DNA of 64,000 nt from an uncultured Candidatus Saccharibacteria bacterium (GCA_964648765.1 CAZYLF010000002.1:3537-67536), one strand, 5' to 3'; numbered from the stretch's first letter, positions 14,835 through 39,609 are shown. Notes: generated by a model not told the origin, from the letters alone. Numbers and translations: made by a program.

Positions 14835-14902
14835 TCAACAAAGTTCTTTCTTCAAAAAAGCAATCCCGCGTTTGGAGTAATCCAAACGCGGGATTTTATT
14901 TT
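14805..14902. repeat. direct repeat copy 1 (gene 3' end + terminator), partner at 20630-20728
   Basis: …gggtggctacagcgtcacctgatcaacaaagttctttcttcaaaaaagcaatcccgcgtttggagtaatccaaacgcgggattttatttt matches the block at 20643-20728. Confidence 0.8.
14862..14902. terminator. bidirectional rho-independent terminator
   Basis: Perfect 15-bp stem aatcccgcgtttgga / tccaaacgcgggatt with loop gtaa; T-run on the + strand and A-rich on the other side. Confidence 0.8.
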
Positions 14903-20629: not shown

Positions 20630-20728
20630 AGATAGCTGGTGGCTACAGCATCGCTTAAACTGTAAACAAAGTTCTTTAAGAAAAAACAATCCCGCGTTTG
20701 GAGTAATCCAAACGCGGGATTTTATTTT
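20630..20728. repeat. direct repeat copy 2 (includes a remnant of the 13572-14834 gene 3' end + identical terminator)
   Basis: …ctggtggctacagcatcgcttaaactgtaaacaaagttctttaagaaaaaacaatcccgcgtttggagtaatccaaacgcgggattttatttt. Confidence 0.8.
20688..20728. terminator. bidirectional terminator (identical copy of 14862-14902)
   Basis: Identical 34-nt palindrome plus T-run. Confidence 0.75.
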
Positions 20729-20931: not shown

Positions 20932-21111
20932 ATGCTATCTCCTAAAAATGTTACTCAAAGTTAACTATTTATAAATTAACACATTATGGCAAAAAAGCAA
21001 ATATTAATAAAACCATAGCAATTTTGAATTTTTTTTGTTACTATCACGCTTGATATTCTGAAAGATGAATATCATATTCCGGCGTGGCGCAGTGGTAGCG
21101 CAGTCGCCTGT

Positions 21112-21693
21112 GGACAGGTTCTTGGCTTACAGATGGTATACTCAACTGAGTTATGCCACGAAAAGAAACAAGAACCTATGCTGATCGAGCAGCCTATATG
21201 GTAAGGGCCGTTTCTTTAAGAAGAATTAAGTTAAGGAAAATGGCTCGAGAATACAAAGGTGGTAAATGTGAAATTTGCGGTTACTCTAGATGTGAGCGAG
21301 CGCTAAGTTTCCATCATCGAGATCCTAAAAAGAAATCCTTCGGGATATCAGACAGAGGTCTAACGTATTCTTGGCAGAGGATAAAAAACGAAATTGATAA
21401 GTGTGTCCTCCTCTGCGCTAATTGTCATATGGAATTGCACGACGGTTTTACGCAGCTTCCCGCTGTAAAGCGGGTTGAAAAATGAGGTGAATTCGGTGAA
21501 GTCCCATGTGGATAATACCGAGCCGAGCCCGCCAACATCCGAAAGGTTGTGGCGGGAAGGTGTAGAGACTATCTCGCAAGAGAGTACTTCTCGCTAAATA
21601 AAATTAACGAGACGGAAGCGCCTCACATCCCACTCACTGAAAAGTGAAGGATGATGATCTAGTCCATCCCTTTAAGCAATTAGAGGATAAATG
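21112..21693 (+). other. group I self-splicing intron (putative) carrying an HNH homing endonuclease ORF
   Basis: It lies between the tRNA halves. The 3'-terminal G, the R/S-like elements (ggtgtagagactatc … gatgatctagtcc) and an internal HNH ORF support the call. The exact P1 and boundaries are unverified. Confidence 0.55.
21153..21485 (+). CDS. HNH homing endonuclease (intron-encoded)
   Basis: CEICG…HHRDPKKK…CANCH zinc-finger/HNH motif; 110 aa. Confidence 0.7.
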   Translation: MPRKETRTYADRAAYMVRAVSLRRIKLRKMAREYKGGKCEICGYSRCERALSFHHRDPKKKSFGISDRGLTYSWQRIKNEIDKCVLLCANCHMELHDGFTQLPAVKRVEK

Positions 21694-21719
21694 TAAGCGA
21701 TTGGTCGTAGGTTCGAATC

Positions 21720-23390
21720 CTACCGCCGGAGCCTGACTGACAAAAGTGGCACATGATGCCACTTTTGTTGTATTTGGCCTGGCTTTTTAGAGGTTCGAGC
21801 GTGCTCTATTTCCTGCATAATAGCTTCTCGTGCTTTTATGAGGCTCAAAAAGAAAGAACTGTAGGAAAGCTGGATCTTTTTGTCGGAAATGGTGAGGTTC
21901 GAGCCAAGGCATGCGAGTATCGCTCTTTTGGTCTTTTCATCTCCATTTGCGTACCAAAGATGGGCGTAGCACGCAAAGTCAAAGGTTTGCTCTGATAGTT
22001 CTGCCCATTGTTCAACTGCCTTATTCTTAATCTTCAACTCGTCTTCAAGAAGGCCCTTCTTTCTGAGTAGGTCTGATTTTAAGGACTGATATTCCTGTTC
22101 GCCAATGATGGTTCGAGCCTTGTTGGATGGTGCGGTGAAGTTTAAGGTTAAAGACTGCAGCTGCTGCGTTACTTCTTCACACTCCTTGTGTTTGGTCCTT
22201 ATTGCAATTGAATCACTCTCGGCCTCAGTCTTGCGGACCTCATGAACATGGCGGACCGCCCAGTCACGATACTCTTCTGAAATTCTTATATCTTTAAGGA
22301 TCGCTCCAATCTGTAGATGTAGCAGTTTTACTTCTACATGCTTTTCAGTACAACCGGCATCATATCTCTTTTTGGTGCAGTTATAGTAGACATAATGATG
22401 GACGTTGCCGTTCTTGCATCGCTTTACTTTTGCTTGAGCTGTAATACTACAACCACAGGTGGCGCATTTCATAAGACCAGTAAAAGCAAACATTCGCTCC
22501 TCATGTCGTGGGCGTGGTTGATTGCTTCGGCCCATAATTTTTTGGACCCTATCAAATTCCTCTTTGGTAACCATTGGCTCATGCGCTCCTTTATTCCAAT
22601 TACCACTGTGTAGCGGAAACTCAAACCAACCGTAATAAAATGGATTCCCTAGGACTGCATAAATTGCTGATCGAGAAAGATGTTCGCCGCCAATGTTTCT
22701 ACGTGGGACCGTCCGGAGATTCAATTGCTTTCTTGAAATATTCCAAATCTGGGCCATTGAATAGTTGCCGGTAAGAGCAAGGTCAAAAAGTCTTCGGACC
22801 AAGGGAAACCTTTCAGGATCTCTTTCCAAAGTCTTATAACCCTTTTGCTTGTTTGGAGTATTGAGGTATCCGATTGGTGCGCCACTTGGCATCCAGCCAT
22901 CTCTCACTTTCTTTTGCAGACCTCGCTTCACATTCACTGATAGGTCTCGAATAAACTGGTTGGCCATTCCAAGTTCCACCTGCATCATGAGGACGTTGTC
23001 TGTCGGATAATAGGTTCGGCCGAAGGTGACGATCTGGGATATCGCACTCTGCTGCAACATCCAGCTTATCTGGCCACCATCGACAGGATTACGGGCTAGG
23101 CGGTCCAGTTTCCAGCACAGGATGCCATTGGCTTCGCCTTTATAGATTCTTTCAAGCATTGAGTTGAATACTTTCCTGCCTGGCTTCTTGGCTGATTGTG
23201 ATTCTTCAAGGATATCCAGGATTTGTAGACCTTGATCCTTTGCAATCTTCATAAGCTCGTCTTTCTGAGCATCTATGGACGCCGCTTGACGGTCTTCTGC
23301 CTCGCTGGATTTACGTGCGTAGAGGAAATATTTAATTGGTTGATTTGTCTGGTTCATTGTTTGTTTGTGTGTCAGATATGTGGGTCTCAT
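21720..23390 (-). CDS. large serine recombinase (resolvase/invertase N-domain + recombinase domain + zinc ribbon)
   Basis: N-terminal YARKSSEAEDRQ…SIDAQ catalytic Ser region, central recombinase domain and C-terminal CATCGC…C cluster. The stop overlaps the tRNA 3' exon by ~12 nt. Confidence 0.85.
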   Translation of the reverse strand: MRPTYLTHKQTMNQTNQPIKYFLYARKSSEAEDRQAASIDAQKDELMKIAKDQGLQILDILEESQSAKKPGRKVFNSMLERIYKGEANGILCWKLDRLARNPVDGGQISWMLQQSAISQIVTFGRTYYPTDNVLMMQVELGMANQFIRDLSVNVKRGLQKKVRDGWMPSGAPIGYLNTPNKQKGYKTLERDPERFPLVRRLFDLALTGNYSMAQIWNISRKQLNLRTVPRRNIGGEHLSRSAIYAVLGNPFYYGWFEFPLHSGNWNKGAHEPMVTKEEFDRVQKIMGRSNQPRPRHEERMFAFTGLMKCATCGCSITAQAKVKRCKNGNVHHYVYYNCTKKRYDAGCTEKHVEVKLLHLQIGAILKDIRISEEYRDWAVRHVHEVRKTEAESDSIAIRTKHKECEEVTQQLQSLTLNFTAPSNKARTIIGEQEYQSLKSDLLRKKGLLEDELKIKNKAVEQWAELSEQTFDFACYAHLWYANGDEKTKRAILACLGSNLTISDKKIQLSYSSFFLSLIKAREAIMQEIEHARTSKKPGQIQQKWHHVPLLSVRLRR

Positions 23391-24231
23391 TTACTGGCTC
23401 TGCCCATTTTTCGCCGTTTTTAAAGGGTGGTTCCGTAGTATCTGATTGGATACTACTGACTTCCCGTAAATTTCCCGTTATATCGGGAAAATTATCTCCG
23501 TTTTCTGTGGGTCTCACTACCTCACTTAAGGGTATGTTTCCTTCATAGGCTGTCTGGACGACATCATGCCCAGAAGGGTCTTGAATAGCAACTTCTAGTG
23601 GTAGCTGCCACTTATGCATTTTTCTTTTAAGAACATCTCCAATGCTAGTTAAAGAATTCGGGGATTTATTATTTTGGTTAGTTAGAGTATCTACGTTAAT
23701 ACTACGGTTCCTGCGTTTTCGGATACTACGGAGATGTATATCTGGATACTGCGCAACTGAATCTTTAAGTTTGAGACGCCCTTTAACATGGGCAATGCTT
23801 TTCCAAAAATCGACCGACTTAAAGTAGTACAGGTTCAGAGTTTTGAATCCACTCTTTGTCTGAACCACACCAAGGATGCTGCACTCAACAAGAAGCCGGA
23901 CCGCATTGGCAACATAGTTTCTATTCTTCTCCCCAGTTAAGTCTTGAATCGTGGTTAAGCTTGGCCAGGCGACTTGTGTCTGTGTATTTCCATGTTTCAA
24001 GATTGCGCAGTAAACAAGCGTGCAGAGCTTTGGCAACTTTTCCATATAGCCATGCTCTACAAATTCATTCTCCACGAAAAATCGAGTAGGCTTTCTCTTA
24101 CCGCGCAATAAGGACCGGTCAATCTGATTCTTCAGTTCCTCGATCTTCGCCTTGTGGTAGGCATGAGCTATCTCCACTTTCTTTTTCTTCGGGTCCAACC
24201 ACTCGAGGAAATACTTCTCGTTGTTGTTCAT
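23332..24231 (-). CDS. putative replication initiator / winged-helix DNA-binding protein
   Basis: wHTH-like segment LCTLVYCAILKHGNTQTQVAWPSLTTIQDLTGEKNRNYVANAVRLL; located next to the iteron-like array. The start may be the internal Met (24045). Confidence 0.45.
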   Translation of the reverse strand: MNNNEKYFLEWLDPKKKKVEIAHAYHKAKIEELKNQIDRSLLRGKRKPTRFFVENEFVEHGYMEKLPKLCTLVYCAILKHGNTQTQVAWPSLTTIQDLTGEKNRNYVANAVRLLVECSILGVVQTKSGFKTLNLYYFKSVDFWKSIAHVKGRLKLKDSVAQYPDIHLRSIRKRRNRSINVDTLTNQNNKSPNSLTSIGDVLKRKMHKWQLPLEVAIQDPSGHDVVQTAYEGNIPLSEVVRPTENGDNFPDITGNLREVSSIQSDTTEPPFKNGEKWAEPVNETHISDTQTNNEPDKSTN

Positions 24232-24388
24232 ATTCTGTAAGCCACACCTTTTTCACAGGCCGATAGACAAGATCAAAGACCGTCAGGAGTTTGGTAGCTT
24301 CTTCAACAAGAATTTCATCTGATGGAACCTCGCCATGTTCCTGGCGATAGATCTCTCGATATTCATCTAGTGCTTGTTTACTTAGCAT
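24119..24388 (-). CDS. small protein homologous to the 33511..33735 ORF (function unknown); C-terminal part overlaps next gene
   Basis: N-terminal 45 aa (DEYREIYRQEHGEVPSDEILVEEATKLLTVFDLVYRPVKK) align with ESFQVLYKTHFNKDISRAEAVEKGTKLLTLMKAVYKPMTKE. Confidence 0.45.
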   Translation of the reverse strand: MLSKQALDEYREIYRQEHGEVPSDEILVEEATKLLTVFDLVYRPVKKVWLTEYEQQREVFPRVVGPEEKESGDSSCLPQGEDRGTEESD

Positions 24389-24499
24389 GATGGTGTAGTG
24401 TTTGGTTAATAATTTCGACCTTTAGTCTCTTCCAGAAATAGAAAGAGCTGAGTCCCAGTTGCAAGTGACTCAGCTCTTTCCATGCAACTGGATGTTATG

Positions 24500-24860
24500 T
24501 ATCGTAGATCCTATTTCGTGCAAAATTGCGTGCATTACTTTGGGACCATCCGATTTGTCTATTCTGAGGCCCTATATTTTCCTAATTGCAGGAATTACTT
24601 CGGACCAAAGAACTATCTAATCCTAGTGCTTAAAAAAAGCAAAACATGGTGTATTACTTTTTATGGCTAGGATTATGGATTTATCCTAAGGTGTATAAAG
24701 TTCCTAACTGTAGGAATTACTCTTACCCCCCGAGGACTGTCTTAATCCTATTGTCTAAAAAGTGAAAAATGCGTTGCATTACTTTCATCTCCTCGGACAG
24801 TCATATCCTAAGAGCAAATGTAGTGCATTTCGGTGTGCATTACTTTTCCTTTAGGACCAG
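24500..24860. repeat. iteron-like array: 6 degenerate tandem repeats of ~61 bp each containing ATCCTA and TGC(G)TGCATTACTTT motifs
   Basis: kGCATTACTTy occurs at 24531, 24591, 24651, 24714, 24776 and 24836. ATCCTA occurs at ~24507, 24619, 24682, 24744 and 24805. The array lies in the intergenic region upstream of the rep-like/recombinase genes. Confidence 0.7.
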
Positions 24861-24975
24861 GTAAGTATGAGGTCCGAAGAAGTGCAAATTAGTGGGTATT
24901 GGCCGAGACAACGTAAAAAGCCCTGAATAGGCTTGGAAAAGCGTACACAGGGCTGTTTAGGGTCAAATTCGGTGT

Positions 24976-27900
24976 CTACAATATGTTCTCTCGCAATAAA
25001 TAAGCTATTACCGAAGCCTTTTCCAAGAGGAAATCCAAAATGATGAGAATCTGATTTTTTAACTGCGGATTAGTCTTGATCTTTTGCCGATTTTTAAGAA
25101 TGTAACTCCTCACAAGATTCTCCAGATAATAAACAGTGTTTACTTCTAGTTCCTTACGAGAAAGATCTGGATTCTTCTGTAGCAAATCACTAATCCAAGC
25201 AATACCCTCAGGAACAAAATTACTACCTATATCATTCAGAAGTTTTGTCAAAGCATACAAGACAGGGGTATTACCTCCCATATCTTCAGATACTTTCTTA
25301 AAGAAAGTCTTTTCTCTGTCTTTCAGAGAGCGCCATTCTTTCGCCCCTTTCTTCCATTGCAATGCTAGGAGGTATTTATGAACAACACTTTCAGCGTATC
25401 TAAGGTGATTTTCATCTGAGCATAGTTCCACAATCTTCGGATAGAAAACCTTCCAAACAGTCCAAAATTCTTCGTATTGATTTATAGAATCTTCCGCAAT
25501 AACAAACGCTTCTAGTACATCAGCCACAGCTTTCCTTCGCCTGAAATCACCAATGAGTTCCGTAAATGGCTTCACATACGTTTCAATTTCTTCTTTTGGA
25601 GAATAGAGGACAAAGTAAGCAAACTTATCTAAAAATCTATGTTCAAGCATATAGTCCAGACGCTCTTCCTTGTCCTCATTCTTAAATGCTTCTATGAGCA
25701 CAGGGCAAATTTCTCGTAAAAACTTCTTATGATTCTCGTCACTAGTTTTTAGCGGTACCAGCAGAAAAGCAGTTACGAGTATGCCGGGATCTATCTCTGC
25801 AACATTCTGTAGATCTGTATAAGAGAGTTGATTTGATAAGGCTTTATTGATCTGGGCTTTGCACTCTTTTTTAAAACGCTTTATGACAGAGATTGTAGAG
25901 AAGTCATATTTTTGTTTCTTTCGACTCTCTTCTCGAATAGACTCGCTTATTTCATCAAACTTAGGTTTAAGAAATAAGTACCCATGGAATATAGCTTTTG
26001 CATCCTCGGGACTTTCTGACCACAGATGTTGCAGAACTGCCGCGACCGCATAATCAGAGACTCGTTGGCTCATACCAATCGGATAGGAGTCGAAAAGAAC
26101 GAGAAGAAGTATCACTTTGATTTTTTCAGCATCCTTGGGAAACTTTTTGATCAATAGAGGAAGGACGTTAACTGATGCTTCTAATCCGTCGCCAACCTGA
26201 TATCGAAAACCTGCCTTCAAAGGCATAGATGCATAATCGAGTACTACTTTTTTACAAAACTCTGTATCCTTAGGAGACAGTTTGTCTGAGTAGTCTCGCA
26301 AAAGTACGGCACAGACATATGATGGAACTGACCGGTAGAATAATCTGAATTGACTCTCTTCGAGTTTATCTTTATCTAGCTGTTCCAGGATTGCTTTCGT
26401 TTCAGAAAGCGCGAGCACAGGATCATTTTCATATTGTGGGTAATTTTTTACTTCTTCCTTTCTTTCAAACTTATGACTCGACCATAATTGCAAAGGTGTA
26501 TATTTCAATGCTTCGGAACTTTTTGCCTGCGCTTCTTCACTGTGTTGTCTTAACTCTGGATCAATCTCAGGGTTGAAACTAATAAGAACTTGATCGTCTT
26601 TTTTCTCTGTAGTTATCTTCATTTTTCGACGATCCATTCTTGCCAAACAAAGTCTCCAGGTTTTATCACCATCAGTCTCTTTTGATTTGTTAGGTAGTTT
26701 TGCATAGTATTCATCAAGTATTTTCCATACCTCTTCCTGTCTAGTTTTAGACACTTCTTCCGCTTCGCCCTCATTCGCAAATAACTGATAGTTAAGTGCC
26801 TGATTTTCAAGTGAGTGATTACGATGCTTATCTTCACAAGTCTGCAGCCTCTCGTTCTTGAATAAGCCCATTGGATCATGGGCCATCGAGTAAGTGAACT
26901 TCGCACTACTCATATCGAGGTACATTCTTGAAGAATCAAAGAAAAAGAAATCCTTAGTTCTGAAAAGAATTTTTGCAATATTGAATAGCTTCGACGGTTC
27001 GGCAAGAACAGCGCTGACTACTACTGCAGTAATCGAGACGGATCGAGAATTTTTGATGAGATAAAGGCACCACTTCTCTACAACTTCAGGATCCCAGGTT
27101 TTTGCTATACCGAGCAACCAATGCTCCAGAGCCATATGAATAGATTCAAGTAATGGTGGAGCAACCTGCGTTCCCCGATATAAATTCCAAATTCTGTGAC
27201 AGGCATATTGTTTGATAGTTTGACCCGAAGCATCTACTACGACATCTATTTCTTCAGCTTCGTACTGCGCGAATTCTGATTTGGCAAAATACCCGATCGA
27301 CTTATTAGTAAATGCTAAAATAAAGTTGACCGTTTCCTGAGGGGCGACTTGCAACATCGTTCCTATTGGTGTCTGAAAAGCACTAGCTGGGTAATACTCA
27401 AGATGGCCCTCCGTGAGATCAAAGTATTGCTCTATGCCATTCCTGTAATCAGAATATGAATGCCTATCTTCACGAGGTTTATAAAACCAAAATAGATTTG
27501 CAAGTTTTATGATTTCTTTCGGAAGATGACGTGCAACTTCGGTGCTATTGATAATTGAAGAAAGCATCACTTTTACCAATTCGTAATATCGAGTTCGATG
27601 GGATGTATCCTGCGCGGCAATGACTCCATCTACAATTTCAGTCAACTCTTCTTTTATTTCCCCTGAGCCACTAAGAATAGTTCTGATGAGTTGCTCTTTG
27701 GAGCTATCACGAGAACTGAAGTAAAAATCATTCTTGGCTGTAAGGGTGTTGTAATAAAACAATGCAATCTGACTTGCTTCCTTAGTAGTTTCTCCTTGCT
27801 TATTACTTCGGTTCCAATCATCCAGTACTGGGAGGATGACATGCATATACATAAGTTGAAGCCTGTCCTTATGTTTGTTGACGAAAGCAATGGCAGAAGA

Positions 27901-29814
27901 CCACCCACTACCTTTAGGAGTCGTAAATATAGTTTCTAGTGTAAGTGCATTTGCTCGAGTTAAACCCAGACGATTCAAGAAATTGTCATCTACAGTCTTG
28001 CAGGCAATTCTCAGCAAGAAGAGAATTCTGTGTAGCAGTCTTTGTTCGATCTTGTAATTAACATTAACCACCCTAATCACTTTGGAAGAGCTTTCGACAG
28101 AAACGACTCGTTCAGGTTCCTTAAGTAATTCTTCTTCAAAAAGATCAAAGAATACTTTTGAATAATCTGAGAGGAGTACTGAGACTAAAACCTCATCTTT
28201 CCAATAATTCTCAACGGAACCATCTTGCACCGTAAATGCAATCAACTTCTTTGCTTTTTCATCACTTGCAAAAAGTTTGTCGGATAGCCAATTTCTAAAG
28301 GCACGTCGAATTGGAAGCGAACTACCTATTTCAGTGTAAAAATTATCGAAGCTGGTAGCAGTGCTAAAGGCCCTCTCGATAATCATATCTAAAGCCCACT
28401 CTTCATATACATCGTGTGTTATGAAGTATCCGCCAGCGTTTGAATCAAATTTGATAATCTCGCTCGCTTCTAGTTTCTGAAGCGCTTCATGATCAGATTC
28501 TCCAGTCCTAACGAAGAATCCTCCCTCATTTGCACGTTGCTTAGCGATCTTCAAAAAAGACTCTTCTCTTCGTCTGTGTAAATTATTTGATTGAAAACCT
28601 GAATTCTGGATCTGCTTCTTCCAAATAATTTCGCGAAAATCAGTATAGCTAATATCTGCCTTCGTCTCAGTATAATCCTGTAAATACTCACTCAGATAAA
28701 GTGGCGTTGAAAGAAGGCTTGCAAGTCTGTCATTTTTAGGAAGCTTGAATTTATGTGTCCTTGCGATTAATTCAATTTCTTCACTGGAAAGATGTGGAAT
28801 ATTCAGGGATGCAAAATTCGCTCCGTAGAATTCTTTTAGTTGGAAACGGAGATCATCAAGATAGTTATGTCGCACTGTAAAAATAACTTTCCAACCATTT
28901 GTGACTAACTCAGACAGAAACATTCTGAACACATCTTGGTCTTCGATTTCTGAAAGTCTTTCAGCCGAGTCAAAGACTACATACTTCTCATTGATATCTT
29001 TATGCTCAGCAATAAATTCTGCTGCAGTGATTTCTCCATAATCCTTGAAAAGTTGGTTTATATGGGAAGCACTTTTAAATTGTGTAACCTTAAAGACGAA
29101 AAAGGGTGTGGAATCCTTTACTGTTTCGTAAAGATCTTTTATTACCGCAGTTTTACCTACCCCTGCACCACCACTTAAAACCACAAGCGGAAAAGTTTGA
29201 GCGGTATCTTTAACACCACCCACAACAGAAGAACGGTCTAGTTTGATTGCACTTTTCCCAAAAGAGATCTCTGAACGGATAGGCTGAAGTACTGAATCAG
29301 TATATTTCTGGAGTTCAATAATGGAGTCGATGATGCCCTTCTTAAGACTAAAGAAATGTTGCGCGATACTAAAGTTCTCTTCGCAAACAAATGGCGATTC
29401 AAAGTAGCTTCCTGTCCGCCATTCGATCTCGACACCTTTTGACTTAGCGTGAGCTTCTATGTCCTTTTTGTATTGAGGATCTGTTTTCTTTTTGTCCTGT
29501 CCAAATTCTTGATTCGTATAGAAAATAATTTTATTTAGCTTCGGATGTCTCTCTTTGCCTTTATCGATGGATTCTTTAAAGTCGGCAGTATGTTGAGAGA
29601 GCGCTGTCGTATAAAATTTCGACTGCCAACCTACAACTAAGCCATTCTGTTCAACAGGATTGGTTTCGATACCAGCATGATTCTTGAACCTAAAAACACC
29701 AATATTTTTATTAAACTCCTTGCAAAATAAAAGATAACAAAGTCGTTCAAAAGCCCCTTGCTTATTACTACTAAATTTCGCACCGAAGTTGTCCCAATTC
29801 ACTTCCTGAATCAT
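24976..29814 (-). CDS. 1612-aa STAND-type P-loop NTPase (Avs-like architecture): putative N-terminal PD-(D/E)xK-like nuclease, central NTPase, long C-terminal helical repeat region
   Basis: Walker A VVLSGGAGVGKTAV, Walker B KYVVFDSAE, sensor VIFTVRHNY (hhhTxR) and then ~1250 aa of helical repeats. The first ~130 aa (…GIETNP…VVGWQSKF…) are a possible E…QxK nuclease-like core, which is speculative. Confidence 0.75.
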   Translation of the reverse strand: MIQEVNWDNFGAKFSSNKQGAFERLCYLLFCKEFNKNIGVFRFKNHAGIETNPVEQNGLVVGWQSKFYTTALSQHTADFKESIDKGKERHPKLNKIIFYTNQEFGQDKKKTDPQYKKDIEAHAKSKGVEIEWRTGSYFESPFVCEENFSIAQHFFSLKKGIIDSIIELQKYTDSVLQPIRSEISFGKSAIKLDRSSVVGGVKDTAQTFPLVVLSGGAGVGKTAVIKDLYETVKDSTPFFVFKVTQFKSASHINQLFKDYGEITAAEFIAEHKDINEKYVVFDSAERLSEIEDQDVFRMFLSELVTNGWKVIFTVRHNYLDDLRFQLKEFYGANFASLNIPHLSSEEIELIARTHKFKLPKNDRLASLLSTPLYLSEYLQDYTETKADISYTDFREIIWKKQIQNSGFQSNNLHRRREESFLKIAKQRANEGGFFVRTGESDHEALQKLEASEIIKFDSNAGGYFITHDVYEEWALDMIIERAFSTATSFDNFYTEIGSSLPIRRAFRNWLSDKLFASDEKAKKLIAFTVQDGSVENYWKDEVLVSVLLSDYSKVFFDLFEEELLKEPERVVSVESSSKVIRVVNVNYKIEQRLLHRILFLLRIACKTVDDNFLNRLGLTRANALTLETIFTTPKGSGWSSAIAFVNKHKDRLQLMYMHVILPVLDDWNRSNKQGETTKEASQIALFYYNTLTAKNDFYFSSRDSSKEQLIRTILSGSGEIKEELTEIVDGVIAAQDTSHRTRYYELVKVMLSSIINSTEVARHLPKEIIKLANLFWFYKPREDRHSYSDYRNGIEQYFDLTEGHLEYYPASAFQTPIGTMLQVAPQETVNFILAFTNKSIGYFAKSEFAQYEAEEIDVVVDASGQTIKQYACHRIWNLYRGTQVAPPLLESIHMALEHWLLGIAKTWDPEVVEKWCLYLIKNSRSVSITAVVVSAVLAEPSKLFNIAKILFRTKDFFFFDSSRMYLDMSSAKFTYSMAHDPMGLFKNERLQTCEDKHRNHSLENQALNYQLFANEGEAEEVSKTRQEEVWKILDEYYAKLPNKSKETDGDKTWRLCLARMDRRKMKITTEKKDDQVLISFNPEIDPELRQHSEEAQAKSSEALKYTPLQLWSSHKFERKEEVKNYPQYENDPVLALSETKAILEQLDKDKLEESQFRLFYRSVPSYVCAVLLRDYSDKLSPKDTEFCKKVVLDYASMPLKAGFRYQVGDGLEASVNVLPLLIKKFPKDAEKIKVILLLVLFDSYPIGMSQRVSDYAVAAVLQHLWSESPEDAKAIFHGYLFLKPKFDEISESIREESRKKQKYDFSTISVIKRFKKECKAQINKALSNQLSYTDLQNVAEIDPGILVTAFLLVPLKTSDENHKKFLREICPVLIEAFKNEDKEERLDYMLEHRFLDKFAYFVLYSPKEEIETYVKPFTELIGDFRRRKAVADVLEAFVIAEDSINQYEEFWTVWKVFYPKIVELCSDENHLRYAESVVHKYLLALQWKKGAKEWRSLKDREKTFFKKVSEDMGGNTPVLYALTKLLNDIGSNFVPEGIAWISDLLQKNPDLSRKELEVNTVYYLENLVRSYILKNRQKIKTNPQLKNQILIILDFLLEKASVIAYLLRENIL

Positions 29815-29819
29815 CGTAT

Positions 29820-30983
29820 TTACCGATTTCCTTTTGCTCGATTGTGTGTCTTACACAACATTTCGCAATTTTTAATATCGGTCTTTCCACCCTTACTCCA
29901 GGCCGAGACATGGTCGGCATCCATATCTGCTAGACTCCAAATCTTATCTTTGTTCGCATCGTGACCGATCGCACAATGTGAACAGTTAGAAGTACCTTTC
30001 TTCTTTGCGGCAGCAGTTTGAGCTTCATAGACTGAACGTTTGGTTGAGTCCTCAAATACTCGAACTTCAAGTAGTTTTGTTTCGACCTCTCCTCCTAAAA
30101 CATACTCAAAAATACCTTTGCGATTTTTTACAAAACCGTCGGCATAGAGTTTCTGAACCGTAGCAGATACTTTAGCGGGATTATATTTTTTCTTATGATA
30201 CGTTTGGTAGAGTCTATTCCACTCAAGGCCTTTCATCTCGCTTTCAACTTCAGTAAATGTAGTTGAAATCCAATCAATAACAATTTCGAAATGCTTTTTT
30301 AGCTCGGTAATGTTTTTGTCGTTGCGATGCTTGCTCATGTAACTATCGATATCACCACCAGAAACCCAATCTAAGGCTCGTTCCAAATATGCCTGGCGTT
30401 TAATATCACCTGCAATGTACGCACTCCATTTCTGGACGTTAGCGTTCTGACTGTTACTAAATTCTTCACGCGCAAGTGTGACAAATGGTCCAGAATATAC
30501 CGCATTAAGAATCTCTTGTTCGGTTAAAGGAACTCCCGCAATATTGATAGTCTTAAACCAGTCTTTGATCTCCGGCTCATCACCCTCACATACATATACC
30601 AACAACTTAGTATTCATGATTTGCTCTCGTTGGCTCTCAGCCATGCCGCTGTAGTACTGTTCATGGCCATTCCTATCTTTGACAGCAAACTTTCCTGTCA
30701 CAAAGCGGCCAATACTTGTGATACGCTGCTGACCATCTAACACCTCAAACTTATCTTTGCCAGCTTGATTAAAATAAATTAAACCTATTGGGTAACCTTT
30801 CAAAATTGAGTCAATCACAGCAACGTCACGCTTACCATCAGCATAAATATAATTACGTTGATACTCTGGTTGAATAGTTAATTTTCCAGATAGACCAAAC
30901 AACCCCTTTCCTTCGAGTTCGTTGTAGACGAAGCCGTCGCAAACTTCTCTAATTGTAATGTCATTTTTTAAGGTTGTTTTCAT
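29820..30983 (-). CDS. DUF262 (ParB-like nuclease/NTPase) – HNH endonuclease fusion (GmrSD/SspE-like architecture)
   Basis: [19 protein letters not shown] motif; C-terminal CSHCAIGH…[12 protein letters not shown]…[17 protein letters not shown] motif. Confidence 0.8.
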
Positions 30984-30985
30984 AA

Positions 30986-32107
30986 TTATTTTTTCTTATG
31001 TTTGATAAATAACTTTTTAAATGTTTCTTTGCCATTTATATAGGTACTACGTCCGTAAACACCTTCAGGATCCTGACCAATTCCTCGGTTTGCACCAAGT
31101 ATCTCAAACTGCTCAGAAGAATATTTGTCCATAAAACTTATCGGCACGCCAATAACACCACCATAGTCGCTTGGGATCGCATCTACATACGAAACATCAA
31201 TGGCATCGTAATTATCATATTTATCATATGATGTTTTACCCTGCATTTTTTTGTTGAACTTTAAGTTATCTTCCATACTCATTAAGCTGAGTGGTTGATG
31301 TCTTCGCCCATGATCCAAATTAGTGTACCAACGCACACCCTGGACTCTCGTGATATAAACTTTTTTACCTTGTTCATTTACCTTTATTTCACGTACCTGG
31401 TCTAGATTAGCTATCGCCTCAGGTATTTCGTAAAACATAGCTCCACCGTTCACTTTTGCATTATTGCCAAACCATACTTTGTTTGCCTTAATCATAGGAA
31501 AAACTTCTTTGTATGTAATCGCGTTCATATTTCCAATGATCAAAAATTGCTTTTCGTAATCAAAAAGTTGCGTAATGTATTCACGAAATAAACTAAATGG
31601 AGGATTGGTGACTACAATGTCAGACTGTTTGAGTAACTCAACACATTCATCACTTCTAAAATCACCATCGCCCTCAAGCGGAGACCACTCGTTATTTTTG
31701 TTAGCTCTAAGTTGCTTAGCAATATCTTCTAGTGTAAAAGAACCATCGCCATCAACATCACCAACCTCGTTAATAATAAATTTGTTAGCAACAACTTTTG
31801 GTCGCCCTTTGACTGGTTTGAGGGTAACGTCATCGCCGAATAGTGTTATTTGAGTGTTCGCAACTGGAGAGGGTTTGTAACTAGTTGTAATAAGTCTTTT
31901 TAGTCCTAAACGATTAAAATTCAAGACGAAGTAACGAAAAAAGTTACTTTCAAACGGGTCATCACAGTTACTGTAAATTACCTTACCTTTAAAAGTATTC
32001 GGGTTATATTCAAGATATGATTCCACCTCTTTTTGAATATCAGAAAATTGAGTATAAAACTCATCATTTTTTGCTTTTTTTGCGTCTCTTAGATTCTTGT
32101 TTGCCAT
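30986..32107 (-). CDS. N6-adenine DNA methyltransferase (gamma-class; DEFYT motif X, NPPF motif IV)
   Basis: NDEFYTQF and [11 protein letters not shown] motifs. The start is set at MANKN (32107), which avoids overlap with the Fic gene; the ORF track extends to 32206. Confidence 0.75.
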
Positions 32108-32111
32108 AAAT

Positions 32112-33014
32112 TTATTTCTGTTTGCCAGGGCTATAAACAAACCCTTCTGCAATCTTCCAAACACCTTTCTCTCGGAAAGCTGGGATGTTTTGACGACGAG
32201 CGGCATTAGTTAGCGCAGATGCTGATGCGTGGCTTGTCTTTGCATAATCAGAAAGAGTAACGATCTTCTCGCCCTTAAGATAAGTAATTCTTTTGTGGAG
32301 TGATTCGGTAAGAGAAAGCGCGAGGATCTTTTCCATCTTCTTTGCAGTCTTCTTGTCTCGATATTCAGCAAAGGTGCTGTAATAATCCTTTTTTTCTTTG
32401 TCTCGAATGATAATTCCAGGGAAACCAAGTCTCTGGAGTTGGTAATTTATAAGTACACGACCAATACGACCATTGCCATCACAGAATGGGTGAATAGTTT
32501 CAAATTCAAGGTGGAATTTTGCAATCCTGTCTACAAAAAATGACTTAACATCAGCAACATACTCTGACAAAAGTGCATCAATCATTTTTTCTACTTGTTC
32601 AGGGGCCGGAGCAACGTGTGTACCAACTCTCACATATTCACCGATCTTTCTGAAACGACCGGCAATATCATCTTTAATCCCGCCAATAAGCATTTGGTGG
32701 AGGAATAAAATAACTTCTCTGTTTACTTCAGTTTCTTGAGATTTATTTCTAATGTAAGCAACAACTCGAGCAAGATTCTTAGCCTCGAACACTTCTCGGA
32801 CCGAAACTTCACGAGCTACTTCCATTTCCAAAAGAATCTTTTCCGTCTCCTGGAGAGTAAGGGTTGAGTTTTCGATGGCGTTTGAGTTATAAACCGCCTC
32901 GGCAACCTCCGCCTCATCTACCATAACCAAAAGTGACTCTTTTCCTTTTTTAAGAGCTTCGTATTCGGTCTTGAGGTTTTGGATTCTATTTACGAGGGGT
33001 TTTGTAATTGCCAT
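32112..33014 (-). CDS. Fic/Doc family protein (AMPylase-type Fic motif)
   Basis: Canonical Fic motif HPFCDGNGRIGR. Confidence 0.85.
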   Translation of the reverse strand: MAITKPLVNRIQNLKTEYEALKKGKESLLVMVDEAEVAEAVYNSNAIENSTLTLQETEKILLEMEVAREVSVREVFEAKNLARVVAYIRNKSQETEVNREVILFLHQMLIGGIKDDIAGRFRKIGEYVRVGTHVAPAPEQVEKMIDALLSEYVADVKSFFVDRIAKFHLEFETIHPFCDGNGRIGRVLINYQLQRLGFPGIIIRDKEKKDYYSTFAEYRDKKTAKKMEKILALSLTESLHKRITYLKGEKIVTLSDYAKTSHASASALTNAARRQNIPAFREKGVWKIAEGFVYSPGKQK

Positions 33015-33039
33015 ATGTTTTAGTTAATTAACCTTTAAT

Positions 33040-33068
33040 ATTATAGGGTTTTCACTACTTCTTGTCAA
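33040..33068 (-). promoter_or_regulatory. promoter (minus strand) TTGACA-N17-TATAAT driving the Fic-MTase-HNH-STAND operon
   Basis: Reverse complement reads TTGACAagaagtagtgaaaacccTATAAT. Confidence 0.6.
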
Positions 33069-33197
33069 TTTTTAGTGAATGATAGGCTATTTTAGCACCT
33101 TATTCACTAGTTTTTGCTATATAACCCAGTAATCTAAGGTACTTATAAGGTGTGGTAAGGCCTTTACTTTTTTGACTTCTAGGAATAATGTTGCGAC

Positions 33198-33506
33198 ATG
33201 AGTCAATTATTAATATCAGTTGTAGGAGGTCTTCTTGTTATAATCATCGCTGCTATATTCGGCCTTGGTGGGAACACAAAGGTAACTGTCCATGGTGGTG
33301 GAAGGGTTAAGAAGACAGGAAAATGGATAATCATTATCTCGGTAGTGATGTTTTTCATAGGACTTTCCCTATGCAAAAAGAGTGATCCAACTCAGTGGGG
33401 CTTTGATCTAAATATTTCCTCTACTCTCTACGGCGTTACAATCATGCTCTACAGTGGATTATTTTTTGTTGTCGGTAAAATTGTAGCCTGGTTTCAAAGA
33501 CCATAA
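33198..33506 (+). CDS. small membrane protein, 102 aa
   Basis: Three TM helices. Confidence 0.45.
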   Translation: MSQLLISVVGGLLVIIIAAIFGLGGNTKVTVHGGGRVKKTGKWIIIISVVMFFIGLSLCKKSDPTQWGFDLNISSTLYGVTIMLYSGLFFVVGKIVAWFQRP

Positions 33507-33510
33507 ACTT

Positions 33511-33735
33511 ATGCAGCTCGCAGACAAAGACATCGAGAGTTTTCAGGTGCTGTATAAAACGCATTTCAATAAAGATATTTCGCGTGCAGAGGCAGTAGAA
33601 AAAGGCACCAAGCTCTTAACATTGATGAAAGCTGTTTATAAACCCATGACCAAGGAACAGTTCGATGCTATCCAGAAACGGAGAAAAGATACATTACCAG
33701 CTTTGATTAAAAGACTGGAACAAGATCAACTCTGA
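33511..33735 (+). CDS. small protein homologous to the 24119..24388 ORF
   Basis: See the alignment above; 74 aa. Confidence 0.5.
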   Translation: MQLADKDIESFQVLYKTHFNKDISRAEAVEKGTKLLTLMKAVYKPMTKEQFDAIQKRRKDTLPALIKRLEQDQL

Positions 33736-34115
33736 AACTCTACCTCGAACGGATACATTCCCATTCCGCAAGTTCCTTGGAGTGTGCCGAGTTTGCCTTC
33801 ACCAATATCAATATCAGTTGAACCTGTTTGTGGAAGCGATTTGCTTATACCCATACTTGGAATTCGAACTGATGATGAACAGTCAAAGGTTCCTTTAGTG
33901 TTGAATCTGATGATTGTTGGAATACCGGCTTTTGCAATACTCTTTCGGGGTTGATATCCACCCCTCGCAGTTATTTCGATAATCTGCTTTCCGTCTACAA
34001 CGCTAACGTTGTTTGCATTTGCCACCTGTCCAGTGTCACCACCACTTCTGGTGAGCATAAAAGCTCCACCGATGAGGACTACTGCTACAATAATTGAGAT
34101 AATAGTTGCTTTCAT
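33726..34115 (-). CDS. membrane-anchored periplasmic beta-sandwich (cupredoxin/CopC-like?) protein
   Basis: N-terminal TM anchor then a beta-rich domain with a GTCGMGMYPFEVEF Met/Cys-rich end. The start is set at the internal Met, which follows TATAAT-N8 (leaderless-like). Confidence 0.45.
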   Translation of the reverse strand: MKATIISIIVAVVLIGGAFMLTRSGGDTGQVANANNVSVVDGKQIIEITARGGYQPRKSIAKAGIPTIIRFNTKGTFDCSSSVRIPSMGISKSLPQTGSTDIDIGEGKLGTLQGTCGMGMYPFEVEFQS

Positions 34116-34128
34116 AATTGGAATTATA

Positions 34129-35160
34129 CTAGAAGTTAAAGACTGGCGGAATAACCCCAATCACGACCAAACTATTAATAAGATTGAAGAGAGCGAACAT
34201 GATCACGATCAGTCCTGCCGTCTTGAAGAAGATACCTGCCTTTGAACTCTTTTGAATACTGAACGAGCTGAAGCTGATGAGAGCCAGGACCGGCAACGTA
34301 CCGAGTGCGAATGCGAGCATGGTAAGTCCTCCGGTGAGAAAACTTCCTGTGGTAAGGGTATAAAGCTGCATCGATTGAGTGAATCCGCATGGCAGGAAGA
34401 AGGTTGCAATACCAACGAGAAGCGGCGTGAGAGTGTGATTGAACTTCGATACACCATGAGCATGCTTGGCGATAAACTTCGGCATTGATGGCTGAAGTTT
34501 CTTGGCCCAGTGAAATGTGTCGAGGAGATTGATACCAAGGATAAGCATGACGATACCAATTATCAAACTCAATACAAATGTTGCAGAAGTGTTGAGTGTG
34601 AACGCCGATCCAATAGCACCTATAACTCCACCCAGGACAAAGAATGAGGCGATTCGTCCGGCATGGAACATGAGCTGAGGTCGAACCTTGTCACCCTCTT
34701 TGGCGAAAGTGGCGGACATCGATAGGACCAGACCACCGACAACTGCCATACAAGTTGAAAGCGATGCGATAATACCGATCACAAATGCGGTCCCGTAAGT
34801 TACGTTGCCTGCACTGACAAGATTTACAATTCCCATTTTCTGCAGCACTACGAAGAGCACCGCGAAGCCTAGTGCGATCGGGACGGCAATCTTGAAGTCT
34901 CCCCATTTGGCATTGTGCTGCTGTTTTTCAACCGAGACAGTATAGCCATGAGGTTTGAGCGGTATGGTGAGTTCCTCTGCAATCTGCTCCGGTGTCTTAC
35001 CACCAAAGTCTCCGGTGACTTCCATTGAATGGTGCTTTAGACTTAATTTAACATGGGTGACATTTGGCAAATCTCCAATCTCGCTTTCGGTCATAAGTAC
35101 ACATGCGTTGCAGTGCATTCCATGTACGTGAAAGGTGTATTTTTGTGTTTGTGTAGTCAT
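34129..35160 (-). CDS. heavy-metal-associated (HMA) domain fused to a multi-TM membrane domain (DsbD/CcdA- or TauE-like)
   Basis: N-terminal HVHGMHCNACV HMA motif followed by ~8 TM helices. Confidence 0.65.
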   Translation of the reverse strand: MTTQTQKYTFHVHGMHCNACVLMTESEIGDLPNVTHVKLSLKHHSMEVTGDFGGKTPEQIAEELTIPLKPHGYTVSVEKQQHNAKWGDFKIAVPIALGFAVLFVVLQKMGIVNLVSAGNVTYGTAFVIGIIASLSTCMAVVGGLVLSMSATFAKEGDKVRPQLMFHAGRIASFFVLGGVIGAIGSAFTLNTSATFVLSLIIGIVMLILGINLLDTFHWAKKLQPSMPKFIAKHAHGVSKFNHTLTPLLVGIATFFLPCGFTQSMQLYTLTTGSFLTGGLTMLAFALGTLPVLALISFSSFSIQKSSKAGIFFKTAGLIVIMFALFNLINSLVVIGVIPPVFNF

Positions 35161-35174
35161 TGGTAATTTCAGTC

Positions 35175-35390
35175 TTATCTCTGCTCTCTTTCAAGTTGTC
35201 GACGATAGAGAGCGCATACACCGGCTGAGATCGAGATGAGCGTGAGAACGATGGCATCATTGATGCAGTGCTGATACGTAAAGCCCCAGATAGTTCCGCC
35301 TTCGCCTGCAAGCCATGCGCCGATAAGCGCTAGTGCTCCCCAGATTGCCGTTGCGATTGATACTCCATGGATAAATGATGATTTTTTCAT
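35175..35390 (-). CDS. small membrane protein, 71 aa
   Basis: Two TM helices. Confidence 0.4.
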   Translation of the reverse strand: MKKSSFIHGVSIATAIWGALALIGAWLAGEGGTIWGFTYQHCINDAIVLTLISISAGVCALYRRQLEREQR

Positions 35391-35420
35391 AAGATTTATG
35401 TTAATTATTTTTAAATAAGT

Positions 35421-36062
35421 TTACTTGTACCACTGAACATACCAAGACTGCATCTGCTGAATCTCCTTTGATTGTGAGGAGATAATGTTCTTTGCGAGCT
35501 GCTGCATTTCAGGACGATTTGTACCTGACTGAAGCATGTTCGCCATCATGATCGCCAACTGGTGATGCGGAATCATTTCCTCGATAAATGCCTTGTCAAA
35601 ATCAGAGGCGTTTTCTAGTGCTGTCATATCCTCCTGTCCACCCATGTGCATTCCATATCCAGACATCATGCCGCCACCCATCATTCCTGTGCTTACCTTT
35701 GGCACAGCGCTTCCGAACCAATCCTGGTACCAGCCATTCATACTTTGAATCTCCGTTGTCTGAGCTGCAATAATGGCCGTTGCTAGAGTTTTAATTTCAG
35801 GATGCTTTGCTTTTTGAAGCGCAAGGTTTGCCATGGCGATAGCTCCCTCATGGTGAGGAATCATCTGCTCGATAAAGTGTTTGTCGATGGTGCTGGCGAC
35901 TTGGTTATTTCCAGGCACTCTTTGGTCATACGATGAGTTATTTCGCCAGTTCATCATTCCGTAGCCTCCATATCGAAACATCGGAGTGAGCACTGAAACA
36001 AGAAGAATTCCAATAACTATTCCTCCTATTCCATATAATATTTTGTTGTTTTGATTGTTCAT
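35421..36062 (-). CDS. DUF305 family protein (duplicated HH(E/Q)xAI motifs)
   Basis: MIPHHEGAIAMA and MIPHHQLAIMMA repeats are typical of DUF305, which is associated with copper resistance. Confidence 0.7.
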   Translation of the reverse strand: MNNQNNKILYGIGGIVIGILLVSVLTPMFRYGGYGMMNWRNNSSYDQRVPGNNQVASTIDKHFIEQMIPHHEGAIAMANLALQKAKHPEIKTLATAIIAAQTTEIQSMNGWYQDWFGSAVPKVSTGMMGGGMMSGYGMHMGGQEDMTALENASDFDKAFIEEMIPHHQLAIMMANMLQSGTNRPEMQQLAKNIISSQSKEIQQMQSWYVQWYK

Positions 36063-36085
36063 ATTTTTGTAGTTAGATTAATAAG

Positions 36086-36286
36086 TTACTCTCCGGCGTA
36101 CTTCACAGGATCGGCTGTGAAATGATTCTTGCAGTGGATAGCGCAAAAGTAATAGGTTTTACCTTTGTAGTCTGCGCTTGCCTTAATACTGTCTGCATCA
36201 AGTTCCATTCCGCAGACCAAGTCGAAAGCAACTGCCGGATCAAGATTTTTATACTTTTTATTGCCTTTAAGCTTTTTTGTTTGCAT
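36086..36286 (-). CDS. YHS/TRASH-domain small metal-binding protein
   Basis: VCGMELD…YYFCAIHC motif. Confidence 0.65.
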   Translation of the reverse strand: MQTKKLKGNKKYKNLDPAVAFDLVCGMELDADSIKASADYKGKTYYFCAIHCKNHFTADPVKYAGE

Positions 36287-36399
36287 AGATTTTTGAGATT
36301 AGAAATAGTAATAGAAGCTCTATGCAAAGAGGGGCTGTTTTCAAATAATGAAAGCCAACGGGTAATTTTCCGAGGACGACTAAGTTGCCGTTCTGGATC

Positions 36400-36720
36400 A
36401 AGTCGTACTCGACATAATATCCGACTGGCTAGGATAGAATCTCGATGTTTTATGTAAAGGAATCCTAGGCTGAGAAATACAGCAAATAGAAGCGCGAGTA
36501 AGAAAATAAATGGAACTGATGGGACCACGCTGAAGAACGATATGAATGCTTGGATGTGATGGACCGACATTGCCGCAATGTTTTCCGGACATGGTGTATT
36601 GTCTACGGCCGATGCAATACAACCAGTGGCATGATTAGCCCCATGACTCATTGAGGTAAAACCGAACACCCCTATTACCAGGACACTTGTGATTATTAGT
36701 AATGAGAGGAGTTTTTTCAT
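36400..36720 (-). CDS. small secreted/membrane His/Cys-rich protein (N-terminal part of ORF 36103..36720)
   Basis: Signal/TM then SMSHGANHATGCIASAVDNTPCPENIAAMSVHH. The ORF reads on through the YHS gene in another frame, and that tail looks non-coding, so the 3' end is uncertain. Confidence 0.35.
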
Positions 36721-39053: not shown

Positions 39054-39057
39054 ATTT

Positions 39058-39330
39058 TTATTTGCGCTTAAGCTTATAAACCTTAAGGATTTCATCGACA
39101 GCCTTCTTTTCACTGCCATGCTTCATTTGATGAACAACGTGTGTTGAAAGATGGTTCTCAAGAACCAAGTCCTCAATGCCGGTGAGTGCCTCTTTAATGG
39201 CGGACACTTGGGTGATAATGTCGATACAATATTTTTCCTCCTCAACCATCTTTTGCAAACCTCTGATTTGTCCCTCAGTAATTTTTAATCGGCGAATAGC
39301 TTTTGTTTTGATATCTTGTCTCATATACAT
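39058..39330 (-). CDS. csoR: CsoR/RcnR-family metal-sensing transcriptional repressor
   Basis: 90-aa helical protein with the conserved C…H…C (YCIDI…HLSTHVVH) CsoR pattern; lies upstream of copA. Confidence 0.75.
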   Translation of the reverse strand: MYMRQDIKTKAIRRLKITEGQIRGLQKMVEEEKYCIDIITQVSAIKEALTGIEDLVLENHLSTHVVHQMKHGSEKKAVDEILKVYKLKRK

Positions 39331-39335
39331 ACATA

Positions 39336-39352
39336 ATACCCCCTAGGGGTAT
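39336..39352. promoter_or_regulatory. candidate CsoR operator (GC-tract palindrome ATACCCCCTAGGGGTAT)
   Basis: Near-perfect inverted repeat immediately upstream of the csoR start. It resembles known CsoR operators (TACCC-N-GGGTA type). Confidence 0.55.
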
Positions 39353-39609
39353 AGGAGTCAATCGCAAGATATCAACATTTTTTAAACCAGAGCCAGCTGT
39401 TCGCTTGTTGGCCGGACCAAAGGATAGATCCCATCCTTCAAATTAGGGATGTAATGGTAGTTACTTGTGGTCCTGAAATAGGTAGTTATTTCATCAACAA
39501 CGCGGAGCAAAATTAAGCGCCCATTGAGGGCGTTTTAATTTTGCGAACGGCGGAGCAATAAAGATTAGACACTGTGTTTTACCTTTTAAATTGAGTCTTT
39601 TTATGGTTA

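Follow-up and report, generated by a model that had tools for sequence, protein, structure and literature searches.

A conserved tandem-repeat array and a structured terminator-like element upstream of the recombinase operon in tRNA-associated islands of Candidatus Saccharibacteria

Introduction

Tandem repeats placed ahead of an operon are known from several types of mobile element. Asymmetric, directly repeated operators occur in temperate elements, as in the direct repeats of the P2 C repressor and the monomer operators of P1 C1. In the type III toxin-antitoxin system ToxIN, tandem RNA repeats are followed by a terminator and a protein gene, and the near-identical 36-nt repeats of ToxI are processed by the endoribonuclease ToxN. 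The res region of the Tn3 family packs three sites into about 120 bp and operates on cointegrates as a pair, and large serine recombinases are known to use simple att sites that have no accessory sites. Among plasmids, pAES7, pMARC3 and pMOS2 of Paracoccus encode initiators with an HTH_36 domain, and two iteron-like repeats of 18-39 bp are located upstream of the initiator gene (PMC3832669).

In Saccharibacteria and other ultra-small bacteria of the candidate phyla radiation, hardly any mobile elements, promoters, regulators or replicons have been characterised. Here, we analyze a repeat array in the genome of an uncultured Candidatus Saccharibacteria bacterium, within a stretch of 64,000 nucleotides (GCA_964648765.1 CAZYLF010000002.1:3537-67536) that is referred to as the window. 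A prediction made from this sequence alone had described the array as an iteron-type origin or an autoregulatory binding array located immediately upstream of a winged-helix (wHTH) gene. We compared the array and its surroundings with related loci, and we tentatively favor a role of the array in the control of a recombinase operon. In the literature, we found no description of this island family or of its leader.

Results

The array consists of six degenerate units at 24494-24858 (Table 1) and lies in the intergenic region 24389-24975, between a gene for a 1612-aa STAND/NACHT-like protein (24976-29814) and the operon, both of which are on the minus strand; the minus strand is also the gene-sense strand of the array. 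On the plus strand, ATTACT starts at 24534, 24594, 24653, 24716, 24778 and 24839, that is, at intervals of 60, 59, 63, 62 and 61 bp, and the array holds six of the 24 ATTACT copies of the whole window. Read on the minus strand, every window unit contains aAAAGTAAT[G/T]C, with TAnGAT 33 nt further on. The original prediction had assigned to each unit an ATCCTA motif and, about 24 bp later, a (T)GCATTACTT core. ATCCTA was present in five of the six units, 26-34 nt upstream of ATTACT (start to start), and CCCTA took its place in the remaining one; the figure of 24 bp holds roughly as the gap between the two motifs and not as a start-to-start offset. The predicted core was exact in three to four units, and the others carried GGAATTACT or GTATTACT. 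The window contained six matches to AAAGTAATNC, four of them inside the array, against a chance expectation of 0.85.

Unbiased repeat finding recovered the regular spacing only in part. A repeat-family search returned three-copy families with spacings of 60 and 119-125, because two unit types alternate, and plain autocorrelation peaked at lags of 60-62, 119-125 and 184. The best z was 4.1 (lag 122), and values of about 3-4 were unexceptional against random windows. TRF (minimum score 30) reported zero tandem repeats for the array, since its copies are less than 70% alike. The mean column identity among units was 53%, and the common part was confined to a core of 8-10 nt. The array is real but statistically modest on a single sequence, and the comparative evidence is decisive.

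Table 1. Coordinates of the island core and neighboring features in the window (plus-strand numbering).
Feature	Position	Strand	Description
tRNA-His(GUG) gene, island attachment site	21078..21733	+	sequence reading; split by group I intron
Large serine recombinase	21720..23390	-	Pfam Resolvase + Recombinase + Zn_ribbon_recom
wHTH protein (HTH_36), 299 aa	23332..24231	-	Pfam HTH_36, E=3.8e-8
89-aa ORF	24119..24388	-	residues 1-52 conserved, helical hairpin; tail overlaps wHTH start
T2	24430..24491	-	two interleaved sense-strand helices, U-rich tail
Unit 1 (operon-side)	24494..24553	-	core AAAGTAATGCACGCAATTTTGCAC, TAGGAT + TACGAT boxes; HMM E=1e-8
Unit 2	24554..24613	-	core GAAGTAATTCCTGCAATTAGGAA (T type), degenerate box TAGGGC / CAGAAT; HMM E=2.1e-6
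Unit 3	24613..24672	-	core AAAGTAATACACC, TAGGAT box; HMM E=2.6e-7
Unit 4	24676..24735	-	core GAGTAATTCCTACAGTTAGGAA (T type), TAGGAT box; HMM E=2.9e-9
Unit 5	24738..24797	-	core AAAGTAATGCAACGC, TAGGAT box; HMM E=4.7e-8
Unit 6 (distal)	24799..24858	-	core AAAGTAATGCACACC, TAGGAT box; HMM E=9.5e-7
Possible degenerate seventh unit	24871..24900	-	ACTAATTTGCAC...CATACT; weak HMM match, E=6
T1 block	24901..24969	-	boundary sequence CCCTAAAnnGCCCTGTGTACGCTTTTCC, then intrinsic-terminator hairpin 24918-24934 + T run
Probable far island end	39399..39514	-	~100-nt block, about 90% identical to L001:1237-1358

An HMM was built from the six window units alone and was used to search related loci from genomes and metagenomes (numbered with the prefix L), the hosts of which are Candidatus Saccharibacteria / Patescibacteria MAGs. 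In 38 related loci, one to six tandem, co-oriented units were found upstream of a homologue of the wHTH gene, always on the sense strand and with one array per island; the last unit of the array loci was 290-335 nt distant from the wHTH gene. The HMM gave zero matches elsewhere in the related loci and zero arrays on 1.06 Mb of unrelated control contigs. An IMG/VR scan for the 16-mer AAAGTAATTCCTRCAG yielded more than 120 single matches, which is near a rough chance estimate, and no arrays. The six degenerate tandem repeats of about 61 bp are thus borne out, both by the ATTACT spacing of 59-63 bp and by the arrays at the same place in related loci. Their predicted position immediately upstream of the wHTH gene is incorrect, as a structured element (24440-24491, within T2) and an 89-aa ORF intervene.

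Over 101 distinct units, the sense consensus was aAAAGTAAT[G/T]C, in which AGTAAT is essentially invariant, with a T-rich tract at +22 to +26 and TAnGAT at a fixed +33; the array period across loci was 56-68 bp. The units are not homogenised copies. Unit types, such as GCACG(T/C)AATTTTGCAC on the operon side and TTCCTACAGTTAGGAA, are each conserved between genomes as distinct units, whole units are orthologous between genomes, and among orthologues the inter-box spacers are about as conserved as the boxes. Distal units of related loci degenerate to variant cores such as AATTGATTCC. The Unit 1 type is the best conserved and is retained in the single-unit loci L032-L038, and some elements carry a single canonical unit plus T2. 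We rejected a CRISPR array, in view of the degenerate repeats and of 'spacers' that are orthologous and conserved between genomes; an Rfam CRISPR-DR match was at chance level and located in T1. An attC-like reading of the array was also rejected.

The presence of the array tracked the recombinase clade, recombinase identity being at least 67% in loci with an array and about 42% in those without, and it was tied more tightly to the small ORF than to the wHTH protein. The array and T2 are both absent from distantly related operons (L046:1170-2484; also L047-L049 and L052), which are ~35-42% identical and located at tRNA-His; in their place, an OmpR-like winged-helix gene and a DUF5659-like gene are found directly upstream of the small ORF. 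An R104-to-P change in the recognition helix was considered as a correlate of array loss and was ruled out by L041.

The array is part of a core that belongs to a tRNA-integrating genomic island of Candidatus Saccharibacteria. Between-genome homology extends precisely over 21709-24969 (3.26 kb), with about 91% identity to L006, L007 and L012, and both flanks are unrelated between genomes. In gene sense, the core is ordered as T1, array, T2, 89-aa ORF, HTH_36 protein, large serine recombinase and tRNA 3' end, and the last codons of the recombinase gene, stop included, share sequence with the tRNA 3' end. In the window this tRNA is tRNA-His, and homologous cores in other genomes abut either tRNA-Asn or tRNA-His. 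The group I intron that splits the window's tRNA-His gene (Rfam Intron_gpI, 21360-21686, 54 bits) carries an HNH homing-endonuclease-like ORF (21153-21485), and the intron-split tRNA was missed by both ARAGORN and a whole-window Rfam scan. The core is mosaic: L016 and L030 are about 89% identical in the leader with the small ORF and again where the recombinase gene starts, but the intervening wHTH gene has diverged strongly.

The upstream cargo is different in every genome (restriction-modification systems, STAND and others) and usually ends within a few nucleotides of T1. The T1 block is unique in the window, and its hairpin was also picked up by a terminator scan. This block is present in L001, L003, L006, L007, L009 and L033 with the compensatory hairpin variants AAGCCTATTCAGGGCTT, AAGCCCCATATCGGGGCTT and AACCCCTAGTCGGGGTT, and it forms a sharp edge between variable cargo and conserved core, between-genome BLAST homology stopping at 24969. 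T1 may be a cargo-exchange junction. Another block, listed in Table 1 as the probable far end, is cargo-distal in both the window and L001, the island interiors of which are otherwise unrelated. Because this block is common to the two, the comparison suggests that the window island spans about 21709-39514, and the view of the 3.26-kb core as the whole element is weakened. Direct repeats delimiting the island were not found, as would be expected for a serine integrase, and an empty-site search via a flanking protein returned a single short contig.

Some other features of the window were recorded. The far-end block loosely resembles an array unit (GGACC..AAGTAAC..AAGGAT). A copper/metal-resistance cluster inside the putative island (33726-39330) comprises cupredoxin-like, DsbD/HMA and DUF305 genes, a P-type ATPase with an HMA domain and a CsoR-like 90-aa ORF at 39058-39330, and it is adjoined by defence genes (STAND, GmrSD-HNH, EcoRI-type methylase and Fic). 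A SAM riboswitch (S box; 40802-40906, plus strand, 66.6 bits) is located upstream of an ORF with a cobalamin adenosyltransferase-like domain (40984-41640). A perfect 42-nt direct repeat at 20687-20728 and 14861-14902 contains a terminator-like hairpin, CAATCCCGCGTTTGGAGTAATCCAAACGCGGGATTTTATTTT, with more short matches around.

T2 is composed of helix A (9 bp; 24483-24491 with 24455-24463) and helix B (15 bp; 24467-24481 with 24440-24454), the latter followed by the U-rich tail UCUAUUUCU. Across 21 distinct sequences, standard pairs filled 504 of 504 cells (100%), with double-sided changes in 10 of the 24 pairs and with G-U pairs that are valid on the sense strand only; in the control, partners slid by 1-3 columns paired at 37-51%. 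The helix linkers are 1 and 0 nt, and A and B cannot both form fully; being mutually exclusive, the two helices are therefore predicted to act in the sense RNA as a terminator switch with two states. Helix A begins 9 nt past the TAnGAT box of the last unit, and T2 is situated about 50 nt before the first ORF. This proximity and the sense-strand covariation together place the start of transcription at the last unit or further upstream and predict that the transcript is attenuated, and a sense-strand structure proven by covariation implies that the region acts as a transcribed control leader. Judged from its sequence, T2 appears to qualify as an intrinsic terminator/attenuator, with a hairpin and U tract, an exclusive alternative helix and covariation. 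Rfam gave no gathering-score match in 24300-25000, and an E-value scan of the array and T2 returned only noise (E at least 0.24). We regard T2, which precedes the recombinase operon, as a candidate for a new motif of cis-regulatory RNA.

The 89-aa ORF shares 113 nt with the wHTH gene, relative to which it is in the +1 frame, and its conservation at the protein level is limited to the first 52 residues. Homologues of 89 aa are called in many assemblies, and AlphaFold modelled residues 1-59 with pLDDT >90; searches of Pfam, PHROG and NCBIfam gave no match, and a fold search was uninformative. The helical hairpin is possibly a partner of the recombinase. A programmed frameshift joining this ORF to the wHTH gene was rejected, as the A-AAA-AAG-like site is not conserved and the needed shift is +1. 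Wherever the sequence of a locus extends far enough, the recombinase gene comes directly after the wHTH gene in the order of the operon, and in the array loci conservation is much stronger for the recombinase (at least 67% identity) than for the wHTH protein (at least 37%).

The wHTH protein is modelled with a long helix at the N-terminus, a single winged helix and a disordered tail in which short motifs are conserved. In the tail (residues about 180-299), the motifs DTLTN, VAIQ.PSG, ITGNLRE and NGEK are invariant, being kept even at 35% overall identity, and they are possible docking motifs. For this protein, Pfam matched HTH_36 alone, NCBIfam gave nothing, and a PDB profile search gave nothing relevant. 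Among the array loci, its identity falls to 37-58%, whereas the leader retains about 89% identity. At the recognition helix, the sequence is RNYVANAV, RSSIIKAI, RNTTMKAL or PNSIATAI, all in loci with the invariant AAAGTAAT box, and the boxes thus show no co-variation with the DNA-reading residues of the wHTH protein.

These observations bear on the first reading in the original prediction. If the array were an iteron-type origin, the excised circle would replicate, with the HTH_36 protein as the initiator that binds the boxes and recruits host replication proteins via its disordered tail. The direct repeats upstream of a wHTH gene, and the use of the same domain by Paracoccus plasmid initiators with upstream iteron-like repeats, suit such an origin, and the unit number, from one to six, is variable as iteron numbers are. 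The units, however, have only 8-10 nt in common, each is a distinct conserved type, and the period of 56-68 bp is without helical phasing, whereas an iteron array would contain at least three near-identical repeats of ~17-22 bp with regular, helically phased spacing; moreover, some elements have one canonical unit, and distant relatives of the same operon have none. The wHTH protein matched the PHROG 'replication initiation O-like' family marginally (E=0.009), and RepA_N, DnaD-N and RctB domain 1 were among its many generic winged-helix fold matches, but these were all at E values of 0.04 or higher, the protein has a single winged helix, and its divergence beside an invariant box is not what an initiator and its iterons would lead one to expect. 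Relatives of the wHTH protein were found neither by tblastn in PLSDB and GenBank phages nor in IMG/VR, collections in which plasmids of this phylum are hardly represented.

The composition of the core can be set beside these findings. About 0.5 kb of conserved non-coding DNA within 3.26 kb is much for regulation alone, which favors an origin, but the DnaA box TTATCCACA (up to one mismatch) occurred 0 times in 21709-24969 compared with 28 times in the whole window, and no 40-bp stretch of the core exceeds 78% A+T. The maximum, 77.5% per 40 bp, lies inside a gene, and the array itself is 62% A+T. In addition, the array is bracketed by terminators, and T2 marks a transcription leader. We therefore consider an iteron-type origin unlikely. 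What holds of the prediction of an iteron origin or an autoregulatory binding array is that conserved, directional repeats are strictly linked to the wHTH/recombinase operon; the hallmarks of an origin are missing, and the array resembles a gene-control region more closely than it does a plasmid-type origin of replication.

The boxes sit within an imperfect palindrome, the arms of which differ from unit to unit, and the units can be read as RNA. In such a leader or non-coding RNA, a promoter between T1 and the first unit would give rise to a sense transcript of the array, the unit hairpins would present AAAGUAAU with an AAU bulge, and the hairpins would bind a protein or RNA polymerase and bias T2, with transcripts that end at T2 accumulating as a ~400-nt RNA. 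The same three-stem hairpin was found in nearly every unit (mean z -2.4 versus shuffles), but RNAalifold on 100 units gave no consensus structure. The 5' and 3' flanks of a unit pair better with each other than across units (median rank 8 of 36, permutation p ~2e-4; 36 cluster representatives), the apical stem is kept in both unit types despite different sequences (GCA/UGC versus UCCUA/UAGGA), and A-to-G changes in the outer stem retain G-U pairing. By contrast, the 5' stem halves are invariant and the 3' halves show uncompensated decay, which points to sequence readout rather than pairing.

The array does lie between two sense-strand terminators, T2 is certainly an RNA-level element, and the 456-nt region folds with z = -5.8; yet the antisense strand folds well too (z = -4.8), the array has no strand preference (consensus energy -40.1 sense and -43.0 antisense), and the per-unit difference between strands is not significant at the cluster level (p=0.27). 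A search of the units for promoters, by consensus scan and by-eye sigma-70, sigma-54, sigma-H-like and ECF-like readings, found none that was convincing, and no Rfam family was matched, both of which speak against a leader RNA. A sigma-70 reading as TTGCAC/TAnGAT has spacers of 11-12 nt. In the last unit, TTGCAC followed after 16 nt by TATAAA or TACATA is a weak candidate that failed the scan criteria. On balance, a leader RNA is possible, although we hold it to be doubtful. A more specific proposal, which we think improbable, is that mobile islands of the candidate phyla radiation possess, in the array and T2, a cis-regulatory RNA device that has not been described before. Up to six hairpins, each showing the invariant AAAGUAAU, would load a protein or act on RNA polymerase and would set a 'threaded' switch, in which the anti-terminator helix pairs with the terminator loop, and would so decide whether transcription ends ahead of the recombinase operon.

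Finally, the serine recombinase, alone or together with its small partner protein, might use the units as accessory sites and build on them a defined nucleoprotein architecture for the control of directionality or for autoregulation of its own gene, like res II/III of Tn3-family resolvases. Each unit is a ~50-bp imperfect palindrome, the size of the att site of a large serine recombinase, but the arm spacing varies between units and a rigid dimer could not fit. That the array tracks the recombinase clade, and the small ORF more than the wHTH protein, agrees with such sites, and the res sites upstream of tnpR in Tn3 double as operators. The simple att sites of large serine recombinases, the single array per island and the resemblance of units to island junction sequences only in short, chance-level words nevertheless make accessory sites very improbable.

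Discussion

We favor, with a probability of roughly 0.4, the reading of the array as a tandem operator or regulatory-module array, that is, as the cis-control region of the 89-aa / HTH_36 / recombinase operon, acting together with T2. The units are diverged copies of one ~60-bp module, with the invariant asymmetric AAAGTAAT[G/T]C box and the TAnGAT box 33 nt downstream. Terminator T1 would insulate the array from cargo transcription, and the array feeds directly into T2, where the 15-bp terminator hairpin may compete with the 9-bp helix. The modules may serve as tandem operators for a sequence-specific factor, which could be the small protein, the wHTH protein, the recombinase or a host protein, and operator occupancy and T2 together would set the transcription that reaches the recombinase operon and hence excision and integration. 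Within this scheme, we observe the array with its motifs, its strict linkage, orientation and distance relative to the operon, T1, T2 and the island context, and we infer the binding of a protein, the identity of the binder, the position of the promoter and the regulatory outcome.

Support for an operator array comes from the occurrence of arrays solely upstream of the homologous operon, on the sense strand, with none in control DNA, and from the invariance of the AGTAAT core in 101 units with TAnGAT at +33. T1 is a conserved terminator with compensatory variants, T2 pairs perfectly, relatives that lack the array carry regulator-like genes in the same position, and origin hallmarks are absent. 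A single canonical unit plus T2, as found in some elements, fits a promoter-proximal operator better than an iteron set. Other observations count against operators: no unit contains a convincing sigma-70-type promoter, the wHTH recognition helix varies while the AAAGTAAT box is constant, and the spacers are about as conserved as the boxes. The unit-specific arm complementarity (p ~2e-4, mean fold z -2.4) is not needed by a plain operator and hints at a single-stranded form, either RNA or DNA.

This study defines a widespread family of tRNA-gene-targeting islands, which are driven by a serine integrase and carry defence and metal-resistance cargo, together with their 0.5-kb conserved control region, consisting of the repeat array and an RNA switch proven by covariation. 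If the region is an operator array or an RNA control device, it offers a handle on how such islands decide on excision; if it is an origin, organisms for which there are currently no genetic vectors would gain, in the 3.26-kb core, a candidate replicon and integration tool. In both cases, binding experiments have a precise target in the invariant AAAGTAAT box.

Compared with known replicons, the locus resembles the HTH_36 rep genes of Paracoccus in having direct repeats upstream of a winged-helix HTH_36 gene, and the lambda ori iterons, which are bound by the O protein, in the internal dyad symmetry of each repeat. The Paracoccus and lambda repeats are 18-39 bp long, near-identical and tightly spaced, whereas the window units are ~60 bp long and irregularly spaced and share 8-10 nt. 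Furthermore, the former belong to autonomous replicons and lie near A+T-rich DNA and DnaA or IHF boxes; the window array, by contrast, resides in a chromosomal island between two terminators, without an A+T-rich stretch or a DnaA box.

Like ToxIN, the locus has tandem repeats and, after them, an intrinsic terminator, which controls read-through into the genes downstream. The window repeats are degenerate, unlike those of ToxI, and what follows them is a helical hairpin, a wHTH protein and a recombinase; ToxI-like repeats were rejected, given that the copies are not identical and that the downstream proteins bear no signature of ToxN, AbiQ or another nuclease. As in Tn3 res, which doubles as an operator, the gene for a serine recombinase is preceded by several sites that are imperfect inverted repeats and vary in arm spacing, but here the enzyme is a large serine integrase, and each element has one array of up to six or seven units over about 370 bp. 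The operators of P2 C and P1 C1 recur at one to two helical turns, whereas the window array has a period of ~61 bp, a second fixed box and long palindromic arms. Nevertheless, like these operators, the array consists of short asymmetric boxes in one orientation before the integration/early operon of an integrative element.
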